Below are positions 15,915 to 64,000 of a stretch of 64,000 nt of DNA, in pieces. Source of the DNA: Owenia fusiformis (Eukaryota). The notes beneath the pieces are model-generated. The model saw only the letters and a list, made by a program, of their open reading frames with translations, did not search any database and had not been told where the DNA came from. Each line of letters opens with the position of its first letter. Positions within the stretch are counted from its first letter, which is position 1. The stretch lies in assembly GCA_903813345.2 (NCBI GenBank), contig CAIIXF020000001.1, positions 12,524,001-12,588,000 of the forward strand, given 5' to 3'. The translations under genes and the position numbers were made by a program.

Positions 15915-16414
15915 NNNNNNNNNNNNNNNNNNNNNNNNNNNNNNNNNNNNNNNNNNNNNNNNNNNNNNNNNNNNNNNNNNNNNNNNNNNNNNNNNNNNNN
16001 NNNNNNNNNNNNNNNNNNNNNNNNNNNNNNNNNNNNNNNNNNNNNNNNNNNNNNNNNNNNNNNNNNNNNNNNNNNNNNNNNNNNNNNNNNNNNNNNNNNN
16101 NNNNNNNNNNNNNNNNNNNNNNNNNNNNNNNNNNNNNNNNNNNNNNNNNNNNNNNNNNNNNNNNNNNNNNNNNNNNNNNNNNNNNNNNNNNNNNNNNNNN
16201 NNNNNNNNNNNNNNNNNNNNNNNNNNNNNNNNNNNNNNNNNNNNNNNNNNNNNNNNNNNNNNNNNNNNNNNNNNNNNNNNNNNNNNNNNNNNNNNNNNNN
16301 NNNNNNNNNNNNNNNNNNNNNNNNNNNNNNNNNNNNNNNNNNNNNNNNNNNNNNNNNNNNNNNNNNNNNNNNNNNNNNNNNNNNNNNNNNNNNNNNNNNN
16401 NNNNNNNNNNNNNN
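15915..16414. other. Assembly gap (500 N)
   Basis: Run of exactly 500 N, a fixed-size scaffolding gap. Confidence 1.
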
Positions 16415-19414: not shown

Positions 19415-19914
19415 NNNNNNNNNNNNNNNNNNNNNNNNNNNNNNNNNNNNNNNNNNNNNNNNNNNNNNNNNNNNNNNNNNNNNNNNNNNNNNNNNNNNNN
19501 NNNNNNNNNNNNNNNNNNNNNNNNNNNNNNNNNNNNNNNNNNNNNNNNNNNNNNNNNNNNNNNNNNNNNNNNNNNNNNNNNNNNNNNNNNNNNNNNNNNN
19601 NNNNNNNNNNNNNNNNNNNNNNNNNNNNNNNNNNNNNNNNNNNNNNNNNNNNNNNNNNNNNNNNNNNNNNNNNNNNNNNNNNNNNNNNNNNNNNNNNNNN
19701 NNNNNNNNNNNNNNNNNNNNNNNNNNNNNNNNNNNNNNNNNNNNNNNNNNNNNNNNNNNNNNNNNNNNNNNNNNNNNNNNNNNNNNNNNNNNNNNNNNNN
19801 NNNNNNNNNNNNNNNNNNNNNNNNNNNNNNNNNNNNNNNNNNNNNNNNNNNNNNNNNNNNNNNNNNNNNNNNNNNNNNNNNNNNNNNNNNNNNNNNNNNN
19901 NNNNNNNNNNNNNN
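19415..19914. other. Assembly gap (500 N)
   Basis: Run of exactly 500 N. Confidence 1.
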
Positions 19915-31760: not shown

Positions 31761-34700
31761 CACATTCACACCTTTGGCACAATGAAAGATTCTTCCCAAA
31801 ATGATATGCCCTGACTGTATCTTCCTCTACAGCCCATCCCTTCACTAGCCATCATTCACACCTTTGGCACAATGAAAGATTCTTCCCAAAATGATATGCC
31901 CTGACTTTATCTACCTCTACAGCCCATTCCTTCACTAGCCATCATTCACACCTTTGGCACAATGAAAGATTCTTCCCAAAATGATATGCCCTGACTTTAT
32001 CTTCCTCTACAGCCCATCCCTTCACTAGCCATCATTCACACCTTTGGCACAATGAAAGATTCTTCCCAAAATGATATGCCCTGACTTTATCTACCTCTAC
32101 AGCCCATTCCTTCACTAGCCATCATTCACACCTTTGGCACAATGAAAGATTCTTCCCAAAATGATATGCCCTGACTTTATCTACCTCTACAGCCCATCCC
32201 TTCACTAGCCATCATTCACACCTTTGGCACAATGAAAGATTCTTCCCAAAATGATATGCCCTGACTTTATCTACCTCTACAGCCCATCCCTTCACTAGCC
32301 ATCATTCACACCTTTGGCACAATGAAAGATTCTTCCCAAAATGATATGCCCTGACTGTATCTTCCTCTACAGCCCATCCCTTCACTAGCCATCATTCACA
32401 CCTTTGGCACAATGAAAGATTCTTCCCAAAATGATATGCCCTGACTGTATCTACCTCTACAGCCCATCCCTTCACTAGCCATCATTCACACCTTTGGCAC
32501 AATGAAAGATTATTACCAAAATGATATGCCCTGACTTTATCTACCTCTTCAGCCCATCCCTTCACTAGCCATCATTCACACCTTTGGCACAATGAAAGAT
32601 TCTTCCCAAAATGATATGCCCTGACTGTGTCTACCTCTAAAGCCCATCCCTTCACTAGCCATCATTCACACCTTTGGCACAATGAAAGATTCTTCCCAAA
32701 ATGATATGCCCTGACTTTATCTACCTCTACAGCCCATCCCTTCACTAGCCATCATTCACACCTTTGGCACAATGAAAGATTCTTCCCAAGTCAACATTCA
32801 TGCCTTTGGCACAATGAAAGATTCTTCCCAAAATGATATGCTCTGACTTTATCTACCTCTACAGCACATCCCTTCACTTGCCAACATTCACACCTTTGGC
32901 ACAATGAAAGATTCTTCCCAAAATGATATGCCCTGACTGTGTCTACCTCTACAGCCCATCCCTTCACTAGCCATCATTCACACCTTTGGCACAATGAAAG
33001 ATTCTTCCCAAGTCAACATTCACGCCTTTGGCACAATGAAAGATTCTTACCAAAATGATATGTCCCTACCTCTACAGCCCATCCCTTCACTAGCCATCAT
33101 TCACACCTTTGGCACAATGAAAGATTCTTCCCAAAATGATATGCTCTGACTTTATCTACCTCTACAGCACATCCCTTCACTTGCCAACATTCACACCTTT
33201 GGCACAATGAAAGATTCTTCCCAAAATGATATGCCCTGACTGTGTCTACCTCTACAGCCCATCCCTTCACTAGCCATCATTCACACCTTTGGCACAATGA
33301 AAGATTCTTCCCAAAATGATATGCCCTGACTGTGTCTACCTCTACAGCCCATCCCTTCACTAGCCAACATTCACACCTTTGGCACAATGAAAGATTTTTC
33401 CCAAAATGATATGCCCTGACTGTGTCTACCTCTACAGCCCATCCCTTCACTAGCCAACATTCACACCTTTGGCACAATGAAAGATTCTTACCAAAATGAT
33501 ATGCTCTGACTTTATCTACCTCTACAGCCCATTCCTTCACTAGCCAACATTCACGCCTTTGGCACAATGAAAGATTATTACCAAAAAGATATGCCCTGAC
33601 TTTATCTACCTCTACAGCCCATCCCTTCACTAGCCATCATTCACACCTTTGGCACAATGAAAGATTCTTACCAAAATGATATGCTCTGACTTTATCTACC
33701 TCTACAGCACATCCCTTCACTTGCCAACATTCACACCTTTGGCACAATGAAAGATTCTTCCCAAAATGATATGCTCTGACTGTGTCTACCTCTACAGCCC
33801 ATCCCTTCCCTAGCCAACATTCACGCCTTTGGCACAATGAAAGATTATTACCAAAATGATATGCCGTGACTTTATCTACCTCTACAGCCCATCCCTTCAC
33901 TAGCCATCATTCACACCTTTGGCACAATGAAAGATTCTTCCCAAAATGATATGCCCTGACTTTATCTACCTCTACAGCCCATCCCTTCACTAGCCATCAT
34001 TCACACCTTTGGCACAATGAAAGATTCTTCCCAAAATGATATGCCCTGATTGTGTCTACCTCTACAGCCCATCCCTTCACTAGCCAACATTCACGCCGTT
34101 GGCACAATGAAAGATTCTTACCAAAATGACATGCCCTGACTGTATCTACCTCTACAGCCCATCATTCACAAGCAAACATTCATGCTTTGGCACAATGAAA
34201 GATTCTTCCCAAAATGATATGCCCTGACTGTATCTACCTCTACAGCCCATCCCTTCACTAGCTATCATTCACACCTTTGGCACAATGAAAGATTCTTCAC
34301 TAGCCATCATTCACACCTTTGGCACAATGAAAGATTCTTCCCAAAATGATATGCCCTGACTGTATCTACCTCTACAGCCCATCATTCAAAAGCAAACATT
34401 CATGCTTTGGCACAATGAAAGATTCTTCCCAAAATGATATGCCCTGACTTTATCTACCTCTACAGCCCATCCCTTCACTTGCCAACATTTACGCCTTTGG
34501 CACAATGAAAGATTCTTACCAAAATGATATGCTCTGACTTTATCTACCTCTACAGCCAATTCCTTCACTAGCCATCATTCACACCTTTGGCACAATGAAA
34601 GATTCTTCCCAAAATGATATGCCCTGACTTTATCTACCTCTACAGCCCATTCCTTCACTAGCCATCATTCACACCTTTGGCACAATGAAAGATTCTTCCC

Positions 34701-34913
34701 AAAATGATATGCCCTGACTGTATCTACCTCTACAGCCCATCCCTTCACTAGCCATCATTCACGCTTTTGGCACAATGAAAGATTCTTCCCAAAATGATAT
34801 GCCCTGACTTTATCTACCTCTACAGCCCATCCCTTCACTAGCCAACATTTACGCCTTTGGCACAATGAAAGATTCTTACCAAAATGATATGCCCTGACTG
34901 TGTCTACCTCCAC
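31761..34913. repeat. 90-bp satellite, ~35 copies, derived from the CDF exon/intron junction
   Basis: Unit cattcacacctttggcacaatgaaagattcttcccaaaatgatatgccctgactttatctacctctacagcccatcccttcactagccat; the last unit overlaps the CDF exon end (VEVDTVRAYHFG) and its donor. Confidence 0.97.
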
Positions 34914-35002
34914 AACCTTTTGATGATGATTGAGACAGATCCATGTGATTTTCTTCAGTAGGTCTGGCCTTGCAGTGTGCCCAGTCAGCAGCTTGATTTG
35001 TT
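34880..35002 (-). CDS. Mn-CDF/MTP-like transporter exon
   Basis: 123 bp, phase 1-1; (E)QIKLLTGHTARPDLLKKITWICLNHHQKVVEVDTVRAYHF(G) with the MTP DTVRAY motif; donor GTAAGA. Confidence 0.9.
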
Positions 35003-35326
35003 CTGAAAAATACAAGTTCAATGTTATTGTATTTTATATCAACCCCTTCCCTCAATATCATGTATAAGGCATGCCACAAACACATTTTTGTACTGAAGTA
35101 AACTATTTTTAAAATTTCATTTTATGAATTAAACAAATGCTGACTGAATTGTTGGAATATTTGCCATTATATGGGAACACATTTTATATTACCACCTCAC
35201 ACTGGCATTATCAGACTAAGCACTCTGTAAAATGACTATACAGAGAGAGGCTATAAACCTGGTGTAAAGACAACATTGAAAATGACCACTATGGTGCTTT
35301 ATTACAGTTGAAGAAGTTTCCCTTAC

Positions 35327-35413
35327 CCCAACCAGTGACAATCCAGCTGCCAATGATGTAAATACTAATGAGTATAGCTCCAATGGGGTCGGCAAATGGC
35401 CACCATTTATACC
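35327..35413 (-). CDS. Mn-CDF/MTP-like transporter exon (TM6)
   Basis: 87 bp, phase 1-1; (G)YKWWPFADPIGAILISIYIIGSWIVTGW with the CDF DPIGA motif; acceptor ttacAG, donor GTAAGG. Confidence 0.9.
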
Positions 35414-35791
35414 CTGTAAAAGCAAATTGTTAGTTAAAGGAATATGTCCAAGATGGAATGCTCCATACTTCATTCTTTTGTCAAGGGTGTTCATTTTCAG
35501 ATGTCTATATTGATATCTACTAAGATTTTTATTTTAGTTGCGTTATTTCAATTTAATGTGTGCTTGTCGTAATTGTAAATGTGTAACTGTCAAACCCAAC
35601 TGTCATAAGAGGTAACAGGGATGTACTGAGGTAATTTACATAAATCTTTCTAATTTTGTTCGAGTTTAGATAAATAACATACAGTAACATACATATGTAC
35701 ATACATGTAATTTGTAACATATTTTATTTGCAACAAAAATTGGATAAATTAATACACGTTGGTCAATAACTACAGCATATGTTCTACTCAC

Positions 35792-35914
35792 CTACAAAAC
35801 CTGCTGCCAAGGCTATAATGTTTGATAAGACATCATTCCTATGGTCCTGAGCAAGTGCTTGTATACTTGGATTAGCCAATCTCCTACACATCATAAACAG
35901 CACAAATTTGATGA
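35792..35914 (-). CDS. Mn-CDF/MTP-like transporter exon (TM4-5, DHRND)
   Basis: 123 bp, phase 1-1; (V)IKFVLFMMCRRLANPSIQALAQDHRNDVLSNIIALAAGFV; donor GTGAGT. Confidence 0.92.
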
Positions 35915-37557
35915 CTGAAAAGACACACAAATACAAACATTTAACACTTTGAAATTAAACGTTTGATCTCTTGTCATTGTATACATGATGGTTATATTAG
36001 TCACAGACAAGACTTAAATACTTAATGAGCAAAAAATTCATATCTTTGAATTCTTGTTTTTCTCAAACTTAAACGTGTGATTACGAACACCCCTCTTGAG
36101 TAAACACATCACAATATGAACACTTATAATGTATAAATTGTAAATGTCCATGATTGAATTTCTACAAGGTTGCCATAACAATTCAAGCAGATAGATGCTG
36201 CCATCTATAAAGGTCTTTTTGAAATGGTTCTCAATTTTAGTGTATTTTTCGTTTTATCACCCAAATCTTATCAGAAACAGGACAACCTTTGAATCTTTAA
36301 TTCATTTTTGACAAAAAAAAAATTACAGAGGGTATGATGTCTTTAATTCAATTGATATAGCACTACAGACTTAGATAAGGTATTCACATAAGTGTTTCCA
36401 TTTGTCAAATATGTCAAAGAGGAAAGCCAAATCCTGAATATGAATAAGGTCTGGAATAAATGTACATCATTCCTGGGAAATAAATTCTGAAGTACAATGT
36501 CGATTTTTATGCCTGAATAAATATTATATCAGTTACAGCTTTTATTCGAAGAGTACTCAAGCTTGACAGATCACATCATATTGCGATACCATCAACCTGG
36601 GTCACGCTACCTTTTGATGTATTAGAAAAATCTTGAGAGAATATTCAATTACAAATGTTTGCTTCTCAGCGAAACACTCGTATCATTTTCAAAAGATCCA
36701 GACTTATTATTAATAGGCCATTTCCAGGTAATATCTCAACTTCACTCAATTCATCTTCCACTTTAGTTTTTTCCCTTTTTATTTAGTTGAAATGGAATGA
36801 TATGATCCAATGATATTGATTAACAAAGCAATAATACAGGCACTTTCTGAAACTATGAAATGCACATTGAGTTGGTAACTAACGAACTGATGTAAAATTA
36901 AAGTCTAATCAATGAGCCATGGAATGAGTTCAGTAAGATTACTGGGGACATGGGTAGCTTGTGTAAACACTTATTGCATTAACAATCTCCGTTCACTCAG
37001 CTCTCGTCGGTCGATGAACGCAGTGAAGACTGGAGCGTGCGAAGATACATTTTCATCGACCTTTAAGAAAATTTACTGATTTTTGAAGCCAGAATTGAAT
37101 TTTTATTTGACATGAATATAGTGAATACCGTATTTTGCTTATGTTTAAGTTTTCTTAAATACATATATTTTAAAGTTTTAAACTACATGTACTTGAATGG
37201 CTGTGTAAAATACCCTGACATTATCCTTGACCATTGCAGCCATTTTCTTGCAGTTTTAAAATTCCCAGTCTCCCTTCACTAGGAAAATTATTTGTCTTTT
37301 TTCTATTCATTTTGGTATTTTACACTCTAATTAGAGTGAATCGCAAGCACAGTCCTTTTTCATTTAGCACATCATTTTACTTTTCTTTTGACCATTACAG
37401 CCAAAAATGTGATAATGACCTTCGGTAATATCAAAACATATGGAATTTGGATAAATTAACCCCAGCAGGACTAGTTTTGACAATTCAACATTTAACAAGC
37501 TGAAGTTCAACAAAAGATAGGATTTAAAGTATGGCAATAGTTGGGATTTCTACATAC

Positions 37558-54360: not shown

Positions 54361-55880
54361 GGACTTTACCCTTTCGTGTCTCTGATCAGAGTTCTATTAA
54401 AAAGAAACATTTGGGTGTTTTGTAAAGGTGACACAGACCTATTTCAATATGGTGGACAATAAAGTAACATTTTCATTTCATCAAGTGGAGTAATGCTTGT
54501 AGGATAATTTTGACTCCAGTTTTTTGAAGGCAAAATTAAAATAGGTCATAAGAGATTTGACAATTTGAGCAAATCATGGCTTCTACTCCATTGAAAGAGT
54601 TCACCTTATTAAAATGGTACAACATTACATTTTTACCCCAGAACCTGAAAGACGTGGCTAGACACTGTAAAGTCAACATGGTATATCAATAAACTATTAT
54701 ACAGTATTACAGAAAGCAGTTAAAATTGACTTTTTGGTTGATGATATCCATATTCTGAGATTTATAACATATTCCCTTTTATATTCAAGAGTGTAAAGTG
54801 GATTAATGGAATAATTTTTCTCTGATCAGGTATTAACCTTAAGTAAAACCAACCATGTTTACTATAATAAGTAATAATTACCTTCATAATGTGGGTGGTA
54901 CCATAGAAACTGAACAACAAAGATAGAAATAATAGTACTTCAGCGACCATCAACTTACGCTGTATACATATTTGTGTAAAACGGATGTCCGTTAACCGCT
55001 ATCGAACAAAATTAGCCCTAATCTATATCTTTATATATACCTCGATATGCTTCAATTACATAATGATTTTCAGAGATGAGAGAGTATATACATTAAAAGC
55101 CACTATGGGAATGAAAGAAAAACAATGGTTATAGGGCACTATTAGTAGCCACAATATTACAATACAACACTGACCTATGAGGATTTTATAAGATAAATAT
55201 CTGCCAGTCTATGGTTGGAGACATACATGTAATGTGCTGATGGTGGAAACATTGATTCATATTCTTTGTCTCCGTGGACAAACAGTAACTTCCAGTCAGG
55301 TACATTAGCAGTTTCTTACAACACTCACTTAGACTAAGAAATCAATAAAATGGAAAAAATAATTAACTCTTATGAATTGGGATATCAAATGTCCAATTTT
55401 CTTCCTAAAATTAAAATGGAAATAAAATATTTATCAAGTATAGAGATTTTGTTTTGTTGACATTATGCGTTCTTTGCTTCTTGTTGTAAACTTTAATTTG
55501 TTAATTAATATGATGAATTTAATGAAGCAAACATGGAGTAAAAGGTGTTTCTAAAAGCACATAAAGTGCAGAATAATTTTATCATATTCTATATGAAATG
55601 AAAATGAATAAGAACAAACAGCTAGGGAAACCTAGCACAGTAGTGCCATCTTTTTTTCTATATTGTAGAAAAAAAAATCATGTCATCAAATTCATTGAAA
55701 AAGAAGTCAACTTCAGAAAAGCACTCAACTGTCGTCCAAGCAACTCATAGTATTCAACTTACAGAGAAATTCAACAAAGTATTTGAATTACAGAAATGAT
55801 TGGATAACATACAAGTTTTGTATGTTAAAATACTGTCATTAAATTACTGTTTCATATGTAATTTGAAATCTCATGCTTAC

Positions 55881-56037
55881 CTTGTGGATATAGGAAAGGG
55901 TCTCTCTTCTTCATGGCTCGACTTGTCCACCAAATAATTATTCCTGAGACAAGGTCTACCCCACTGTCAATGACACTAGATATGATAGCAAGAGAACCCG
56001 ACAAACCAGCAGCAATTGCTTTTCCAATAAACAATGT
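55881..56037 (-). CDS. Mn-CDF/MTP-like transporter exon (TM1 end, TM2, DSGVD); most 5' exon identified
   Basis: 157 bp; TLFIGKAIAAGLSGSLAIISSVIDSGVDLVSGIIIWWTSRAMKKRDPFLYPQ(G): CDF signature SGSLA..S..DS..D and YP.G; acceptor tttcAG, donor GTAAGC. Confidence 0.92.
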
Positions 56038-56558
56038 CTGAAAATAGAAATGTATTGAAATTGTTAAATGTATGTTAACATTTCTAGGACCAAAAATCAA
56101 CAAAAATGCAGTTTTATGATATTCCAAGCATGAACAAACCAAACCAGTTATAGATTTACATTTGAAGAAAATCACTGAAAATTTCCAATCAATCCATCAA
56201 GCAGTTTGGGCAGACATAAAAAGCCAACATTTGTGTGCTAAAAAGATGAGAAAATTGTACCTTTTTGAGGTACTGTACAATAAAAAAATGAATGCTCATA
56301 AAAGACAATAAGTAAATACAAAATATAGCAACATAACATACATATATTTTCAATTGGTTGTGATTATAATGACACAATTAGTTCTACATATACATGGACA
56401 TGATACTTTAAAATAGATTTATGTTGATGAATACTCTGAAGTGGTTAATGTAAGCTTACTCTTCACTTTTTATCAATTTAAATTTATGATACACCATTCA
56501 TTATTCAAATGTCTATGAGCAAAAACACTGAACATATTAATTTAAAATCTATAACAGT

Positions 56559-56640
56559 ATGAAGCTATTAGGATTTATTGGAATATTCTTGCTGCTGACT
56601 GTTGATTTTTCAGTCATGCACAGCCAGCACAATGATACAC
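56559..56640 (+). CDS. Uncharacterised type I membrane receptor, copy A, exon 1 (signal peptide)
   Basis: MKLLGFIGIFLLLTVDFSVMHSQHNDT; phase-1 donor GTAAGT; paralogous to 61412-61493. Confidence 0.8.
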
Positions 56641-56843
56641 GTAAGTCTTTTGAAGTATAGAGAATGAAATATTATTTCAATGTTCATAGTGAGAGGTCAC
56701 AGCCTAGAATCTATCAATTCCTTTCTAGTAACCGTATATACTTTGAGAGGTATAAATGGTCTGGAAGGAAAAGGTCAATGATTAAGCCGTAGTAAAATTG
56801 AGTTGTTAAAATTGAAGATGGTAAAACCTCATATTTATTTCAG

Positions 56844-57125
56844 CTGACACTTGCATCCCAGATCAGAGCTTCCATTTAATTAGAAATGAATATGATGGAA
56901 AACGAAGTGACTGCCAACCAGTAGATATAAGTCATAATATAGGCTTGGAAGAATGCAAACATAGAGCATGTCTGAGTGGTGGCAATGTTATCAACTGGGG
57001 CAGGCATATCTTTCCTGGAAGGCATTACTGTGAAGTTAGGCAATGCTGTAAAAGAGATGATGAGGAGGACTGGGATTTTAAGATGGTAGATGATACGCTT
57101 GGATTTAATGTCTACACCATTCCAT
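56844..57125 (+). CDS. Receptor copy A exon 2, Cys-rich PAN/apple-like domain 1
   Basis: 282 bp, phase 1-1; DTCIPDQSFHLIRNEYDGKRSDC...LEECKHRACLSGGNVINW...YCEVRQCC...FNVYTIP; tttcAG / GTGAGT. Confidence 0.85.
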
Positions 57126-57423
57126 GTGAGTTACAAGTGTTACTTATAAATAATCTCAAAACATATAAATTCAAAGAGACATCTGCTATTAGACTGGTAT
57201 AACATAATGATAAGTGACCACATTTGATATCATAACAATTTTTAAGTTATAAGCAATATAAAAAACTACCCATACTAAATAATCTCAGTGTTCATAATAT
57301 TATAAGAGACAAGGCATAATTCTAACTGGCTCATCTACAGAACAAGATGTGAAATAATACTAATGTATATACGAGCACATTGTACCGACTGAATAAAACA
57401 AATATAAATCTTTTTTATTTCAG

Positions 57424-57714
57424 ACCCAAATTCACCTGTATGTAGAACAGGAAGCAATCTGAAACAGTTTGTGAATAGATACAACATGGATGCACAAGTG
57501 TCCTGTGAGTGTGAACATATAGCATCACATAAAAATATTGCATCACTTGCTGAGTGTATGGAGCAAGCATGCAAAGATAATGCAAACGTCTTCAATTATA
57601 GGAATGTAACACCTCACAGTGGCTGCTATACAAAATTGTGTCATAAGAGATTTAGAGATTATGATTTTGAATTAATCAAACAAAATGGTCCTTATTTCGT
57701 TTATGCTTTAACAT
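57424..57714 (+). CDS. Receptor copy A exon 3, Cys-rich PAN/apple-like domain 2
   Basis: 291 bp, phase 1-1; PVCRTG...SLAECMEQACKDNANVFNY...GCYTKLC...YFVYALT; tttcAG / GTGAGT. Confidence 0.85.
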
Positions 57715-58357
57715 GTGAGTTAACACTTAATATTGTATTAGATTATAAAGGTCAAAATACATGTATATAAAAATATATCTGCTGATTTCAATTAATAAAT
57801 ATGTCTATTATTAACTACATGTATAATGCAGTTATACACGATTAACAATATAGAAGTACTGTATGTATCAGGCCCGGAGCCAGCTTTTGCCAAGGGGGAG
57901 ATTCACTTTTCAGAAAAATTCCAGGGGGGTTCACCTTGACAAAGGAGGAGGGAAAGAACAGATGTCGTACAGTCATATGTTGGATTTTGGCTATTTTCTG
58001 AGGATTTAAACAGGTGCATATGTTAGACAAATGCATTACCTCCAGCACTCATAGAGATGATAAAACAATTTAGACTTTGAGACAGGGAAGATGCAAACAA
58101 CCAACCCACATGTTTTTTCTGAAATCTTTTCCTGATTTTCAACCTCTTCCATCCCTGCTTTTTTAATTTTTCTATCACATGACTGTCCGAAATCTGTAAA
58201 ATCAGCACTAAAATGGTGGCCATTTTTAAACAAGCGACCATTTTGAATTTTGACCATTTTTGACGATCAGTCCGTCCTTATGGATGGAGGCGTTCCTTAT
58301 ATCCCTCCAAATTTTGTTTGATGGGATGACAATCTCTTGTGCATACTTTGGTATATA

Positions 58358-58807
58358 CAGGGTGAGCTGAAAAAGGTAACCCAAGCAAATATATGTCAAT
58401 AACTCAGTCATTCAGCATGGGTCTAAAATCATATTTAGCAGGATTAATGTTTATGTTCAAATTCCATAGGTCACAATTTTATTGCCAATTATAAAACATG
58501 TTCAAATGCTGAAATGTGGCACACTCACTGGACATAAATTCCCCGGGGCCTTTATCTGTGATGCAAATGTCTTCACTAAACAGCCTTGAATTGAAACATT
58601 TGAAGCAAGAGATAAGAATGAAGATGACGGCCATTACTCAATATGCCTGTGCTTTTCTAGTGAACAACCTTGCCCGAAATGTTAAATTTTCCTCCAAATA
58701 TGAAAGAGCATTGGACAAGGTATTAATTGTTTCAAATATGATCTTAATTATATGCTAAATGATTGAGTTATTAACACTTGTTTGGGTTACCTTTTTGGCT
58801 CACTCTG
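58358..58807. mobile_element. Tc1/mariner-type MITE in an intron of receptor copy A
   Basis: TA|CAGGGTGAGCTGAAAAAGGTAACCCAA...TTGGGTTACCTTTTTGGCTCACTCTG|TA; imperfect TIRs ~90 bp; TA target duplication; absent from copy B. Confidence 0.8.
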
Positions 58808-58876
58808 TACATATTTTATGGTGATATGACATGTAATATTTCATTTGTAATTGAATAAGGGTATTTTATATTCAAG

Positions 58877-59023
58877 TGGATGATATAGCAGATACTGGTT
58901 TCAAGCCACCAATACCGGAATGCAGAGTACCAACAAGTATATCAACTAAAGCTCTCACATCTGCAACCCCAACTAAATCAGAAGTGACATCTCCTCCAGA
59001 TCCAGATCTTACTACAACTAAAA
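58877..59023 (+). CDS. Receptor copy A exon 4, Ser/Thr/Pro-rich stalk (3' boundary uncertain)
   Basis: (L)DDIADTGFKPPIPECRVPTSISTKALTSATPTKSEVTSPPDPDLTTTK; phase-1 acceptor; only a weak donor (GTAGAA) gives an in-frame join. Confidence 0.6.
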
Positions 59024-59368
59024 GTAGAAATAATCTTAAAATTAACACCTTGCCTCAGCTAGAGAGATTACAGTTCACTCAGAAACAATGAATAATCAAC
59101 ATTCATCATTTCCTCATATATGCACATGCACAGTTTGCATTATACATTTTCCTACAGTATAAAGTATTGCTTAATGAAGGTTCACAATAACAGGGGAACC
59201 TCTGCTACAAGAGATGTAAAACTTTTGATCTAAATGTTTTTTCTTTGTAACTTCCAGACACTAACTTGTATAATTCTGGTGTTAATTTTACATTTGTAAA
59301 CCAACAATTATCTTACATTGAGTTATAAAAAGGTATGTGCCAAGCTATATTGATTCTATGTATTGCAG

Positions 59369-59444
59369 GTTTTATTAGTGTGGTGTCTGGGGTGTTAGGG
59401 TTGATTATCATCATTGTTGTTCTGGTCATCATCTTCATGTACAG
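59369..59444 (+). CDS. Receptor copy A exon 5, transmembrane helix
   Basis: ttgcAG / AG|GTCAGT; FISVVSGVLGLIIIIVVLVIIFMY(R). Confidence 0.8.
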
Positions 59445-59613
59445 GTCAGTATCAAACCCCATACATGGAAATTCATAAAACATTCCCTTGGTAAACAATT
59501 TACTTTTTATATCTTTTGCTTGTATAATATCTTTATTGTTATCACAAAATCAGACAGTGTAAATAACCGTCATACTTTACGCATGTATGAACATATCTTT
59601 ATAATGATTGCAG

Positions 59614-59872
59614 GAGGAAAAAAGGAGGAAAAGGCCCCAGAAGGAGAACAGAGCAAAATACTGATAGCTCATCTCAAGTTGAGCATACTTATCAAAATGA
59701 GGTGAATCAAACAGAACATGTCAAAGAAGACCTGGCTATTTCTTCTCCAATCTATGAGGAATTAGCTATGAACATGAGAAGAACAGATCAATCAGAAGAT
59801 GAGCATATATATACAGTGACCAATGGTCCAAGTGTTCATCAGAATAATGATGTGATACAGTCCATGGGCTGA
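59614..59872 (+). CDS. Receptor copy A exon 6, cytoplasmic tail with tyrosine motifs
   Basis: ttgcAG, phase 2; RRKKGGKGPRRR stop-transfer, then HTYQNE, SPIYEEL, EHIYTV; TGA at 59870-59872; AATAAA at ~60011 and ~60094. This frame is not in the ORF track. Confidence 0.78.
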
Positions 59873-60817
59873 AGCCTTCGGATTGACCTATTTGAGTCTA
59901 ATTGTTGAAGATTAGAATCATTTGGGGTCTTAATACCAGTAAAGTTTACCTATATCCACATTTCTTTATTACATTGGTTGGCACCCATTGGTTTCTGATA
60001 TTCACACGCCAATAAATGTGGTCAGATGATAAAGTTGAGATACCTCAACTTGTCCAAATGTTATGAAGTAATGTAAGATGTATGTATTTATGAAATAAAA
60101 TACAAATAATAAAAGTAATGCAGGTTTTTAGTTGTTACAAATATACAAATAATAATAAAACAATTGCTGTTCTTTTTTCCTATGAATTATTATCTATTTT
60201 CACTTTGTATTTCTTTATTTGCTTAGCCCTATCTGGATTTATGAAACACATATGATCATTACACATAATTTTAACAACAATTTTAATTTAAGAAAGTGTG
60301 AAATAGAAATAATACAAATATGATTTTTTGATATAAAATCAAAATATTCTCAGAAACATTGAACTCCTTTCCTATCTTTAAAAATATCCTGAGAAGAAAT
60401 GTTCTTTTTTTCTCATAAAATGATTTTCACTTTCTGTTTATTTCAAATATTCAGACAGAAACTGTTATCTTAAAGGCCATTAGAATTACTATAGTATAAA
60501 GCATTGTCTTCTGTTTATTGTAATTTTGGGTTTAGTGAGTCTGTTTCAATCACAAGAGGAAGAATATCAGTTTCCCACGAGCAATTAATGAGCATTATTA
60601 CCACCTTGCCGAGCCAGTTCTAGGGGTTTTCGTGCTACTTTAGAAGGCATTCATTTCACTATATCGACCTGAGCAAAATGTGACGTCATAGTGGCGGGCA
60701 AGACCGGTCCAGAATGCATTTAACAACCGGCAATTTTCCCCGGGAAATCAGATATCGATCAGTGCTTAAAATTTTCTTGCTGTTTCAGTCCTGGTCATTA
60801 ACGGTAGTAATAATACT

Positions 60818-60918
60818 AATAACGTCATTTCTGCGGGCAATATAGTGAAATATTGATCCTTGGGCCTTCGGCCCTCGGTCCAATATTTCACTATATAACC
60901 CTTTGAAATGACGTTATT
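60818..60918. repeat. ~100-bp hairpin with a TTCG apex (part of a non-autonomous element)
   Basis: aataacgtcatttc..tatagtgaaatattg..gggccTTCGgccc..caatatttcactata..gaaatgacgttatt. Confidence 0.75.
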
Positions 60919-60972
60919 GTACTATTCCTCCCTTGTCCGTGATGATTCAATCGTTTCATAGTTTTATAAGTT

Positions 60973-61130
60973 CAGTGAAACCCGTGCAGTGAAAACCTAT
61001 GGAGCCACGAAAATGTGTTCACTACAGGTAGGTGTTCACTACATAGAGGCAATTTTATACAGATCAGTGAAGTATGTGCTGAGAAGAGTTGTTCACTGGA
61101 CAGGGGCGTTCACTAAGACAGGTCTTACTG
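60973..61130. mobile_element. Degenerate Tc1/mariner(pogo)-type MITE
   Basis: CAGTGAAACC...GGTCTTACTG|TA with internal gtgttcacta subrepeats. Confidence 0.55.
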
Positions 61131-61411
61131 TACTTAATTTTGGTTGGGAGTCAATGTCAAAATGTTCAAAACATTTTCGGAATCAAATATCAAAATTGTT
61201 GCAAATAAGTTAATCTAGCAATATCACTTGCATATATTTTTAATTAGATTTTGATTAAGTTTGGAGTGTTTTTAATCATGAAAACTTTGAAGTGGTTAAT
61301 ATGTAAACTTACTCTTCACTTTTTATCAATTTAAATTTATGATACACAATTCATTATTCAAATGTCTATGACCAAGAACACTGAACACATTAATTTAGAA
61401 TCCACAACAGT

Positions 61412-61493
61412 ATGAAGCTATTTGGATTTATTGGAATATTCTTGCTGTTGACTGTTGATTGTTCAGTGATGTACAACAAACACAATGATACAC
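61412..61493 (+). CDS. Receptor copy B exon 1 (signal peptide)
   Basis: MKLFGFIGIFLLLTVDCSVMYNKHNDT; donor GTAAGT; ~130 bp of upstream sequence is also duplicated from copy A. Confidence 0.8.
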
Positions 61494-61685
61494 GTAAGTC
61501 TTTTCGGGGTATGAAATATTATATAAAAGTTCAGTTAAGGTTCATTGTGAGAGCCTGCTATCAATTCATTTCTACTACAGCATATATTCTTTCAATTTCA
61601 GAAAGGTAGAGGTCTATGATTTACATGAGTCACAGTGAATTGAGTTGTTCAAATTGAAAATGTTAAAACCTCAATTTTATTTCAG

Positions 61686-61964
61686 CCAATTTTTGCATCC
61701 CAGATCAGAGCTTCCATTTAATACGAAATGAATATGATGGAAAACGAAGTGACTGCCAAATGATAGATAGAAGATATAATACGGACTTGGAAATGTGCAA
61801 ACATTTAGCATGTCTGAGAGGTGGCAATGTTATCAACTGGAGCCACATCTTTTTTGGAAGGGGAGACTGTGAAATTAGGCAATGTTGTAAAAGAGATGAT
61901 GAGGAAGACTGGAATTTTAAGATGGTAGATAATACGCTTGGATTTAGTGTCTACACCATTCCAT
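61686..61964 (+). CDS. Receptor copy B exon 2, PAN/apple-like domain 1
   Basis: 279 bp, phase 1-1 (one codon shorter than copy A); NFCIPDQSFHLIRNEYDGKRSDCQMIDRRYNTDLEMCKHLAC... Confidence 0.85.
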
Positions 61965-62371
61965 GTGAGTTATAAGTGTTACTTATAATAATCTCAAAAC
62001 TTATAAATTAAAACAGATGTCTGCTATTTGATTGATGTAACATATTAATAAGTGACAATATTATATGTAAGAACCATTGAAAACAACCAATACAAGACTC
62101 TCAGTGTTCATGTAATATAATACGAGACTAGGTATATTTCAAATGGCTCACCTACACAAGAGGAAGTTAATTGTCATTCTGATCCTCATAGCATCTTTCT
62201 GTTTCACCTGAAACATCTCAGGGCTGAGAAGAAATGAGATGTCATGGTATATCATGATGGTTAATTGTACTAATATACATTTATTCAATTATGTGTAATT
62301 GTTCAACTGAATTAAAAATAATCATATCCTTATTGCATAAAATAATAAATAGGGGTTATGCACTGGGAGGT

Positions 62372-62480
62372 TTTGGATACAGGGAATATCCCGAGGGATA
62401 TACAATATATCTTCCCGAGGGACCGAAGGGACCAAGGGAAGATATATTGTATATCCCAAGGGATATTTCCTGTATCCAAA
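62372..62480. repeat. ~110-bp hairpin with a TTCG apex on the minus strand
   Basis: tttggatacagggaatatccc..gggatatacaatatatcttccc..CGAA..gggaagatatattgtatatccc..gggatatttcctgtatccaaa; in copy B intron 2, absent from copy A. Confidence 0.8.
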
Positions 62481-62778
62481 CCGACCGTGGATAAAAAAAC
62501 TTTTTTTTTTCACATTTTTTGCAGAATTTTTTTTTAGAATTTTTTTTAGAATTTTTTTTCAAAATTTAAAAAAAAATTTACATAATTTTTTTCCCAAAAT
62601 TTATTTTTACATTTTTTTCAAAATTTTTGTTTTGAGCGGGACATACGATTTATATGTCCCGGAGCTCCGTTGGAGCGGAAGATACGAAAAATATTTGCCC
62701 GGATATGGAATATATTCCCGGTTGATATGTCCCTGAAACCTCATCAGGTATGGAATACATATAAATCTATTATTTCAG

Positions 62779-63069
62779 ATACAGGTTCACCTGTATGTAG
62801 TACAGGAAACAATTTGAAACAGTTTGTGAATAGATACAACATGGGTGCACAAGGATCCTCTGATTGTGAACATATAGCATCACATAAAAATATTAGATCA
62901 CTTGCTGAGTGTATGGTACAAGCATGCAGTGACTGTGCAAATGTCTTCAATTATCGGAATGTAACACCTCACAGTGGATGCTTTACAAAATGGTGTTGTA
63001 TGAGAGATGGAGATTATGATTTTGAATTAATCAAACAAAATGGTCCCTATTTCGTTTATGCTTTAACAT
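62779..63069 (+). CDS. Receptor copy B exon 3, PAN/apple-like domain 2
   Basis: 291 bp, phase 1-1; PVCSTG...SLAECMVQACSDCANVFNY...GCFTKWCC...YFVYALT. Confidence 0.85.
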
Positions 63070-63513
63070 GTGAGTTAATCACTTTACAATATATTTGAAT
63101 GTATAAATCAAACTATTAATATACAGGTATACATATAATTATCTATCATTATCATGCTGTTTGATAAAAAATCTCTAATCCTCAGTATTAATTCGTTGAA
63201 TAATAACTTTGTCTTATTCTTTCAACTCTACACACGGACATATAATCATCAATTGTGAAGGCAATAAACCTATATACAAGGCAATAACAAACAAAATGTC
63301 ATCACCTGCCATTTGGTACATTTGTTACTGGCGCCGAACTCTGGATGCTGACTGCTGGATGCTAAACAAAGTCCACAAAAAGTAGTAAATAAAACAATGT
63401 CTAAAACATAATGGCGATATGACCATAGAAGATAAGTGGGCAAGTGGTTTATGTGTAATAATCTATAATTCATTTGTTATCTAATAATTGAATATGGTTC
63501 TTTTACATTCTAG

Positions 63514-63651
63514 TGGATGATATAGTGGACAATGGTTTCAAACCACCTATACCAGAGTGCAGAGTAACCACCATTGCAACAACAGAAGCTCTCACATCTG
63601 CAATACCAACTGAACAAGATGTTACAACTGAACCAACTACAACTGACTTGG
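63514..63651 (+). CDS. Receptor copy B exon 4, Thr-rich stalk (3' boundary uncertain, may extend to ~63726); rest of gene beyond window
   Basis: (L)DDIVDNGFKPPIPECRVTTIATTEALTSAIPTEQDVTTEPTTTDL; acceptor ttctAG; paralogous to 58877 onward. Confidence 0.65.
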
Positions 63652-64000
63652 GTACAATCAATATAACTATAGTAGACACCTCAGCACCTTCAGAGGCAAC
63701 AAACACTCCACATACACATTTTTATAGTATGAACACAGATTGCAATTCAAATCAAAATATAAGTTTAATGCATGTAATCCACAATCTATGATTACTTTAA
63801 CATTTGTGGCACCTTGAAATATTTTTGCAATAACAATTTATTTACTTAGTAACAATGAACTTATTCAGGAACTTCGTGTCCCCAACTTATGCATTTCTGA
63901 TATCAATTTTACTATAAAGCCTGGTTGTTCAACTGTAAAAGTTATCTTATAGTGATTTAATATGTAGCAATACTACTTGTACTTAAGTATATGCAATTTA

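Follow-up and report, generated by a model that had tools for sequence, protein, structure and literature searches.

Tandem genes for single-pass membrane proteins with a predicted PAN-type fold, from an unnamed family largely restricted to Owenia

We analyzed a stretch of 64,000 nucleotides (nt) from the genome of Owenia fusiformis (contig CAIIXF020000001.1, positions 12,524,001 to 12,588,000 of the forward strand), in the following called the window, with positions counted from its first letter. Toward the end of the window lie two tandem genes, copy A and copy B, which belong to a real and unnamed family, largely restricted to Owenia, of proteins that span the membrane once and have an ectodomain predicted to adopt a PAN fold. 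Both copies are very probably genuine genes, with products composed of a signal peptide, two cysteine-rich modules, a stalk, a transmembrane (TM) helix and a cytoplasmic tail. Uncharacterized lineage-restricted families are common in invertebrate genomes, and Owenia fusiformis is a slowly evolving annelid used as a reference. No fewer than 26 annotated genes of this family, without a name, without a Pfam domain and nearly without relatives outside Owenia, constitute a real annotation gap.

The six exons of copy A (56559-59872, plus strand) are bordered by AG acceptors and GT donors and sum to 1137 nt, corresponding to 378 codons plus a TGA stop codon, without any internal stop. Judged by hydropathy, the product shows the layout of a type I single-pass protein, consisting of a hydrophobic N-terminus, one TM segment, the 24-residue hydrophobic stretch FISVVSGVLGLIIIIVVLVIIFMY, and the basic flank RRKKGGKGPRRR that follows it. 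The two Cys-rich modules of copy A, each about 95 amino acids long, are homologous to each other (BLASTP E-value 7e-8, 31% identity across 72 amino acids). Six Cys residues are invariant across the four module copies of A and B, with 7 Cys in individual modules. Alternative splice sites are possible in copy A at a second in-phase donor of exon 4 (58936) and at other acceptors of exon 5 (59333 and 59345), the latter leading only to a longer hydrophobic stretch; the architecture is unaffected by any of them.

The start codon of copy B at 61412 lies 4853 bp downstream of that of copy A, and the gene extends past the end of the window. The exon phases of both copies are the same, and exon 4 of copy B offers three in-phase GT donors (63651, 63726 and 63762). 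Searching the window by tBLASTn with the copy A product returned copies A and B only. An initial inspection of the letters alone (in the following called the sequence-only reading) had proposed six copy A exons joining in frame into ~378 amino acids, two homologous Cys-rich phase 1-1 modules, a Ser/Thr stalk followed by a TM helix and a basic stop-transfer sequence, and YQN, YEEL and YTV within the tail, together with a second copy of the same phases ~4.85 kb downstream. Each of these elements was recovered in our analysis, in the open codons and splice borders, in the homology and invariant Cys of the modules, in the copy A translation, and in the measured distance and exon lengths of copy B (Table 1).

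Exons of the two copies are 86-90% identical at the nucleotide level, whereas introns 1 and 2 are partly alignable with 72-73% identity and intron 3 is unalignable. The ratio of nonsynonymous to synonymous substitution rates (dN/dS) was 0.50 over 263 aligned codons, with a dS of 0.275, and reached 0.62 in module 1 and 0.61 in module 2, which points to constraint, though not tight. Diversifying selection was considered but found no support in these values. The identity of the duplicated 5' flank (91%) exceeds that of the synonymous sites.

Table 1 Exons of copies A and B and the duplicated 5' flank, in window positions.
Feature	Position	Strand	Description
Copy A duplicated 5' flank (promoter-proximal region or 5' untranslated region)	56427-56558	+	last ~134 nt before the ATG, 91% identical to 61278-61411 (copy B)
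Copy A exon 1	56559-56640	+	82 nt, donor gtaagt; ATG and signal peptide (MKLLGFIGIFLLLTV...), hydrophobic N-terminus; phase 1 at end
Copy A exon 2	56844-57125	+	282 nt, acceptor tttcag, donor gtgagt; module 1, predicted PAN/apple fold; phase 1-1
Copy A exon 3	57424-57714	+	291 nt; module 2, homologous to module 1; phase 1-1
Copy A exon 4	58877-59023	+	147 nt, donor gtagaa; stalk, 47% Ser+Thr+Pro; phase 1-1
Copy A exon 5	59369-59444	+	76 nt; TM helix FISVVSGVLGLIIIIVVLVIIFMY; phase 1 to 2
Copy A exon 6	59614-59872	+	259 nt; basic stop-transfer stretch and 86-amino-acid cytoplasmic tail (YQN, YEEL, YTV), stop TGA
Copy B exon 1	61412-61493	+	82 nt; signal peptide; 90% nucleotide identity with copy A exon 1
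Copy B exon 2	61686-61964	+	279 nt; module 1; 78% amino-acid identity with copy A; contained in P0001
Copy B exon 3	62779-63069	+	291 nt; module 2; 81% amino-acid identity with copy A
Copy B exon 4	63514-63651	+	stalk, 65% amino-acid identity with copy A stalk; donor ambiguous

Part of copy B has a counterpart in the public databases. The record CAH1773080.1 ("unnamed protein product, partial", Owenia fusiformis; in the following P0001) lies letter for letter inside the copy B model, covering residues 16-208 of the 217 encoded by exons 1-3 and stopping 9 residues short of the end of exon 3. An independent annotation therefore uses identical exon 1-2 and exon 2-3 joins. For copy A, we inspected contigs from four sequencing runs, the RNA status of which is only guessed and which may represent DNA or unspliced RNA. 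They cover exons and introns alike at low depth, and absent cover is uninformative on expression. One contig of 434 nt (X3 record 21) joins 56916-57108 to 57424-57635, skipping intron 2 and restarting exactly at the predicted acceptor, and the match of another (X4 record 25) begins exactly at 57424. Because X3 record 21 carries mismatches to copy A (29 of 405 aligned bases, and 26 letters where 17 were expected), it stems from an allele or a closer paralogue. Contig differences within the copy A exons (21 listed, 15 nonsynonymous and 6 synonymous) show about the same ratio as found between the two copies, in contigs that may mix alleles and paralogues.

The same contigs delineate repeats within and between the genes. 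In all four runs, contig depth reached 10^3 to 10^5 at 57869-58936, 60539-61339, 62141-62941 and 63209-63475, compared with single or double digits over the exons. These stretches are high-copy repeats, located in intron 3 of copy A, between the two copies, and in introns 2 and 3 of copy B. Inside them, near-perfect hairpins resembling miniature inverted-repeat transposable elements are found at 62372-62480 and 60818-60918; the arms of one are 45 nt long, 93% complementary and 19 nt apart, those of the other 49 nt, 82% and 3 nt.

We searched 1.84 billion representative proteins with a profile of the four window modules and identified 38 relatives at a maximum E-value of 0.001, including 18 at 1e-10 or lower. 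Thirty of these were looked up, the other eight being short matches. Among the 30, 26 belong to Owenia fusiformis, where they are called "unnamed protein product" or "uncharacterized", and four are unnamed ENA or JGI records. The Owenia relatives are spread over 10 contigs, of which nine measure 32-62 Mb and the tenth 108 kb. Relatives possess two or three modules, and in most full-length members a hydropathy scan placed a TM helix at the C-terminal side. The two-module subgroup comprises copies A and B, P0002 (44% identity to P0001) and P0019 (33% to P0001). P0002, with 446 amino acids, unites two modules, stalk, TM helix and tail within one public model. P0001, P0002 and P0019 are located on one 62.2-Mb contig, and the accession numbers of P0002 and P0019 are 2 and 4 above that of copy B, an order indicating that the array probably extends beyond the window. 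Near-adjacent accession numbers also suggest further tandem pairs elsewhere in Owenia. The description of a lineage-specific tandem family not recognizable as a named gene, given in the sequence-only reading, is in line with the origin of the relatives, their neighboring accessions on the same contig and the absence of any name other than the two quoted above. In the papers searched, no link appeared between Owenia and PAN or apple domains, nor one between PAN domains and immunoreceptor tyrosine motifs in invertebrates; the listed publications on the MANSC domain, transmembrane proteins and PAN/apple domains contained nothing on the Owenia family by title and abstract. The three-module relatives (P0003-P0018, on other Owenia contigs) contain an extra conserved Cys stretch, C..G.N...C..N.EGT.W, between modules 2 and 3 that is not scored by the profile and may be a fourth, degenerate module.

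The fold of the modules was approached by structure prediction. PAN/apple domains comprise about 80-100 amino acids, with one alpha-helix packed against a curved antiparallel beta-sheet and core disulfides that connect the helix with the central strands. AlphaFold2 modeled module 1 of copy A from a 13-row alignment with a predicted local distance difference test score (pLDDT) of 85.1 and a predicted template modeling score (pTM) of 0.78. The model contains a single long helix (residues 34-44) between strands, with two of the invariant Cys in the helix (C37, C42) and two in or beside the strand at 60-66 (C62, C67). A VIA scan of this model against 48,161 chains yielded 19 rows with Z of at least 5, among which chains of the MANEC, apple and PAN kinds predominate. 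The best-ranked chain was the MANEC domain of HAI-1 (Z 8.2, 84 amino acids, 3.3 Å; HAI-1 ectodomain Z 8.0), in the company of plasminogen residues 1-78 (8.1), the SML-2 lectin (7.6), plasma kallikrein (7.5), the HGF NK1/N domain (7.2, 7.1), TgMIC4 apple (7.2, 6.7) and factor XI (FXI)/kallikrein apple (7.1) domains, a plant S-receptor (6.3), WSC-type domains (6.0-6.2), leech antiplatelet protein (5.4), an Eimeria PAN module (5.2) and AMA1 (5.1). The top Foldseek rows were the FXI/prekallikrein apple (E-value 0.07, probability 0.99, TMq 0.56) and MANEC (TMq 0.62), so the structural comparison proposed for the exon 2 module placed apple and MANEC domains first. For the two modules of P0001, modeled from a 21-row alignment (pLDDT 81.9, pTM 0.75), MANEC was again the best match of module 1 of copy B (Z 8.4, 94 amino acids, 3.1 Å). 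Foldseek aligned 136-192 columns of this model to tandem FXI/prekallikrein apples, but at a root mean square deviation of 12-14 Å. From these models we predict with good confidence that module 1 has a PAN/apple-type, MANEC-like fold. Features from a language model resembled PAN_1 clusters for module 2 (0.93, 0.91 and 0.90) and PAN clusters for P0001 (0.91); they serve as leads only, and together with the homology to module 1 would assign module 2 to the same clan. Pfam matches to Trefoil (E-value 0.22), HMGL-like (0.1) and DUF6342 (0.0078) were all below the cut-offs and were dismissed as chance.

Comparison with known systems shows in which respects the Owenia proteins differ from other carriers of this fold. 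HAI-1 (SPINT1; PDB 2msx, 5h7v), whose MANEC/MANSC domain matched module 1 best in the scans of both models, likewise carries this domain at the N-terminal side of a single-pass membrane protein. Identity to the Owenia module is, however, only 15-17%, and Pfam MANEC (PF07502) is unmatched. MANEC is named for eight conserved cysteines, compared with six invariant ones in the Owenia modules (7 in individual modules), which thus differ from MANEC in their Cys pattern. The Owenia proteins have two tandem modules and lack the Kunitz, LDLa and PKD domains of HAI-1, and we know of no counterpart in HAI-1 to their tail motifs. The apple domains of FXI and plasma prekallikrein (Pfam PAN_1), Foldseek top for both models (probability 0.98-0.99) with VIA Z values of 7.1-7.5 at 8-15% identity, resemble the Owenia modules in being tandem repeats of ~90 amino acids, and each apple module is encoded on its own exon. 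In contrast to the Owenia proteins, FXI and prekallikrein are protease zymogens that are secreted, contain four apples and lack a TM helix and tail. Apple domains also carry a domain-spanning C1-C6 disulfide, whereas the sixth invariant Cys of the Owenia modules lies ~25 residues before the module end. Apicomplexan microneme adhesins (TgMIC4, Sarcocystis SML-2, the Eimeria PAN module, AMA1) share the tandem PAN fold, bind host glycans or proteins and are in some cases type I membrane proteins, but they belong to an unrelated lineage, function in parasite invasion, have no detectable sequence relationship and lack the combination of mucin stalk and YE.[LIVM] tail. The plant S-receptor kinases (SRK; PDB 5gyy, Z 6.3-7.1) are single-pass receptors with a membrane-adjacent PAN module, act in self/non-self recognition and form large, tandemly expanded, polymorphic families. 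Unlike the Owenia proteins, which lack a kinase domain and would have to recruit a kinase, they possess lectin and EGF-like domains and a kinase of their own, and against the polymorphism of their families the dN/dS of copies A and B gives no sign of diversifying selection.

The tail of copy A contains three tyrosines in the contexts EHTYQNEV, SPIYEELA and EHIYTVTN. YEEI-like sequences are docking sites of Src-type Src homology 2 (SH2) domains and YxN is a Grb2 docking site, so YQN and YEEL represent SH2-type contexts. We compared 16 family tails of at least 15 amino acids with 5000 composition-preserving shuffles. YE.[LIVM] was present in six of the 16 (copy A, P0002, P0003, P0017, P0018 and P0019), compared with a shuffle mean of 0.45, and not one of the 5000 shuffles reached six; these six tails perhaps represent three independent lineages. 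The broader YxxPhi occurred in 10 of 16 tails, versus 5.25 in shuffles (P 0.003), while NPxY was absent from all 16. In a three-way alignment of the tails of copy A, P0002 and P0019, two Tyr positions are common to all, and at the aligned Tyr position +3 stays hydrophobic (YEEL, YSNV, YAIV) and positions +1 and +2 vary. Based on these sequences, the conserved tail tyrosine motif is real. It would fit a phosphotyrosine site and a YxxPhi sorting signal alike. The immunoreceptor tyrosine-based inhibitory motif (ITIM) has the consensus [SIVL]xYxx[ILV], and the corresponding activation motif (ITAM) consists of two YxxL/I spaced by 6-12 residues. The copy A tail contains no ITIM and no ITAM pair, as its sole YxxL (YEEL) is followed by YTVT and not by a second YxxL/I.

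On balance, we favor the reading that A and B form part of a tandem array and of a small type I membrane glycoprotein family, so far almost confined to Owenia, whose tail couples to the tyrosine machinery of the cell. A role at the surface, as a ligand-binding receptor or in adhesion, is likewise rather probable. The PAN-fold pair would be raised off the membrane on a probably O-glycosylated, mucin-like stalk and, by analogy with PAN/apple modules elsewhere, would bind an extracellular protein or glycan, and ligand occupancy would be relayed into the cell through the tail tyrosines. In the version we prefer, a Src-type kinase would phosphorylate the tail and SH2 proteins would dock there, Src-type at YEEL and Grb2-type at YQN; in addition to this or in its place, the YxxPhi motif may serve AP-2 endocytosis. 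SH2-based phosphotyrosine signaling specifically is a tentative proposal drawn from the motifs, which we nevertheless rank before endocytic sorting, matrix anchoring and a silent copy A, in this order. The family is a candidate for a kinase-less receptor coupling an apple-type ectodomain to tyrosine-based signaling or sorting. It also shows that a PAN/apple fold in surface proteins of animals can escape sequence searches.

A number of results weigh against parts of this reading. With regard to the fold, the four window modules had no match to Pfam PAN, apple or MANEC at E-values up to 10, nor had 37 relatives at up to 0.01, and the family profile found no PDB sequence at up to 10. By sequence, the modules belong to none of the Pfam PAN families; the proposed Pfam check thus turned out negative, and the designation "PAN/apple-like" of the sequence-only reading stands for the predicted fold of module 1 and falls for family membership. 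The Foldseek E-values are weak (0.07 and 0.011), and the module 2 half of the P0001 model, in which the last 9 residues are absent, had no matches beyond generic small alpha/beta folds at Z ~5. Best Z values of 7-8 are common even for models without a true match; since Z alone is not decisive, the case for the fold rests on one superfamily topping two independent rankings. With regard to the tails, YxN is found in six of the 16 versus 3.63 in shuffles (P 0.09), an unclear enrichment, and ITIM in two versus 1.29, which is chance level. The 16 tails come from related proteins, so their motif enrichment does not amount to 16 independent events, and outside the motifs they are hardly alignable (copy A and P0002 are collinear, but at an E-value of 0.072). 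A phosphotyrosine-motif tail, as originally read, is therefore borne out by the recurrence of YE.[LIVM] but not by YxN, and the recurrent motif also fits a YxxPhi sorting signal.

Further points of this kind concern copy A itself. Contigs crossing introns occur in the same runs (e.g., X1 record 1 at 56448-56858), and among the contigs listed from the four runs none spanned introns 3, 4 or 5, leaving exons 3-4-5-6 unlinked by transcripts. Of the exon joins put forward for confirmation by transcripts, only exon 2-3 gained support, from the single contig that skips intron 2. The link between ectodomain and tail of copy A accordingly rests on the reading frame and splice sites and on paralogues such as P0002 that show this architecture. 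Among public proteins of at least 169 amino acids, the sole match to copy A exon 3 was P0001, which is copy B, and among those of at least 150 amino acids none of 234 word-index candidates passed for exon 6. A word-index search of longer proteins with alignment A2 passed none of 3147 candidates; as it missed even the known relative P0002, its outcome is uninformative. With exons 3 and 6 absent from the public proteins searched, copy A is apparently unannotated, for which the high-copy repeats in its intron 3 may be the reason. According to passages of the publication describing it (PMC9977687), the Owenia annotation was built with Augustus and PASA together with evidence from RNA-seq, and 5,779 gene models were discarded for their overlap with repeats. 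With copy A apparently unannotated and copy B partial, the locus exemplifies the loss or truncation of gene models in the vicinity of repeats.

The same observations could indicate that copy A is a duplicate that is decaying or not expressed, and that functional genes exist only among other members of the array. The lack of exons 3 and 6 in public proteins of the lengths searched, the repeats in intron 3 (contig depth 10^3 to 10^4 at 57869-58936), the lack of a contig joining exons 3 to 6 and a fairly relaxed dN/dS of 0.5-0.6 all agree with decay. Six open exons with canonical splice sites throughout, a 5' flank 91% conserved with copy B and a dN/dS below 1 argue in the opposite direction, and the removal of repeat-overlapping models reported in those passages (PMC9977687) could explain the annotation gap without decay. 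We therefore regard decay of copy A as quite improbable. The tail motifs leave more room for an endocytic or scavenger-type receptor, in which the PAN-fold ectodomain would capture a ligand and an unphosphorylated YxxPhi would lead to uptake by AP-2 and clathrin or to lysosomal targeting in place of SH2 docking. The excess of YxxPhi and the hydrophobic +3 position retained next to variable +1 and +2 positions are what sorting would predict, and HAI-1 and LRP11, membrane proteins bearing the best-matching MANEC domain, are to our knowledge not tyrosine-signaling receptors. The recurrent motif is, however, narrower than YxxPhi, with Glu at +1 in six of 16 tails versus 0.45 expected, and we know of no sorting signals that need Glu at this position; YQN and YTV of copy A also lack a bulky hydrophobic residue at +3. 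Endocytosis as the main function thus appears doubtful, although it comes closest to SH2 signaling in our ranking.

A membrane-anchored component of adhesion or of the apical matrix, e.g., in the epidermis, cuticle or tube-secreting glands, would use the PAN modules for binding matrix glycans or proteins and would have a non-signaling tail. Many animal PAN modules belong to apical extracellular-matrix proteins, glycan-binding PAN lectins (SML-2 at Z 7.6, the TgMIC4 apple at Z 7.2) and a WSC cell-wall sensor (Z 6.0) are among the fold matches, the stalk is mucin-like, and several relatives have short or Tyr-free tails (no Tyr in P0006, P0011 and P0026). As neither ZP nor EGF nor any other matrix domain was found among 37 relatives with Pfam at E-values up to 0.01, and the recurrent tail motif argues for a cytoplasmic function in the subfamily, we consider matrix anchoring unlikely. 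About as unlikely is an extension of the preferred SH2 reading, according to which oweniids invented tandemly expanding receptors for sensing non-self or the environment that use a highly diverged PAN/apple ectodomain instead of immunoglobulin, leucine-rich-repeat or lectin domains and, being kinase-less, would recruit Src- and Grb2-type SH2 proteins through a conserved YE.[LIVM]/YxN tail. If true, these proteins would form a class of invertebrate recognition receptors not described before. The analogy to invertebrate immune or allorecognition receptors drawn in the sequence-only reading gained no support, given a dN/dS of 0.5-0.6 that is not diversifying and ITIM at chance level.

The region is AT-rich (32-35% GC), and the neighbors upstream of copy A are unrelated to the family. 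An uninterrupted plus-strand frame of 330 codons at 53368-54360 matches 7tm_1 above the cut-off (E-value 7e-12, 45.8 bits) and is probably an intronless gene for a rhodopsin-type G-protein-coupled receptor, ~2 kb upstream of copy A. On the minus strand, 114 open codons at 55852-56196 match Cation_efflux of the zinc-transporter type (E-value 4.2e-7, 30.4 bits) and likely represent an exon of a gene ending just before copy A. Exactly 500 N each at 15915-16414 and 19415-19914 mark assembly gaps, which account for the long "open reading frames" listed at these positions. The composition deviates at 32001-36000, with a GC content of 0.43 and a GC skew of -0.49 from 32 to 34 kb and a skew of -0.25 from 34 to 36 kb, compared with ~0.32 GC elsewhere. 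Within this segment, a minus-strand frame of 119 codons (33277-33636) has a sub-threshold match to tRNase Z (E-value 1.9e-5, 24.7 bits versus a cut-off of 27).

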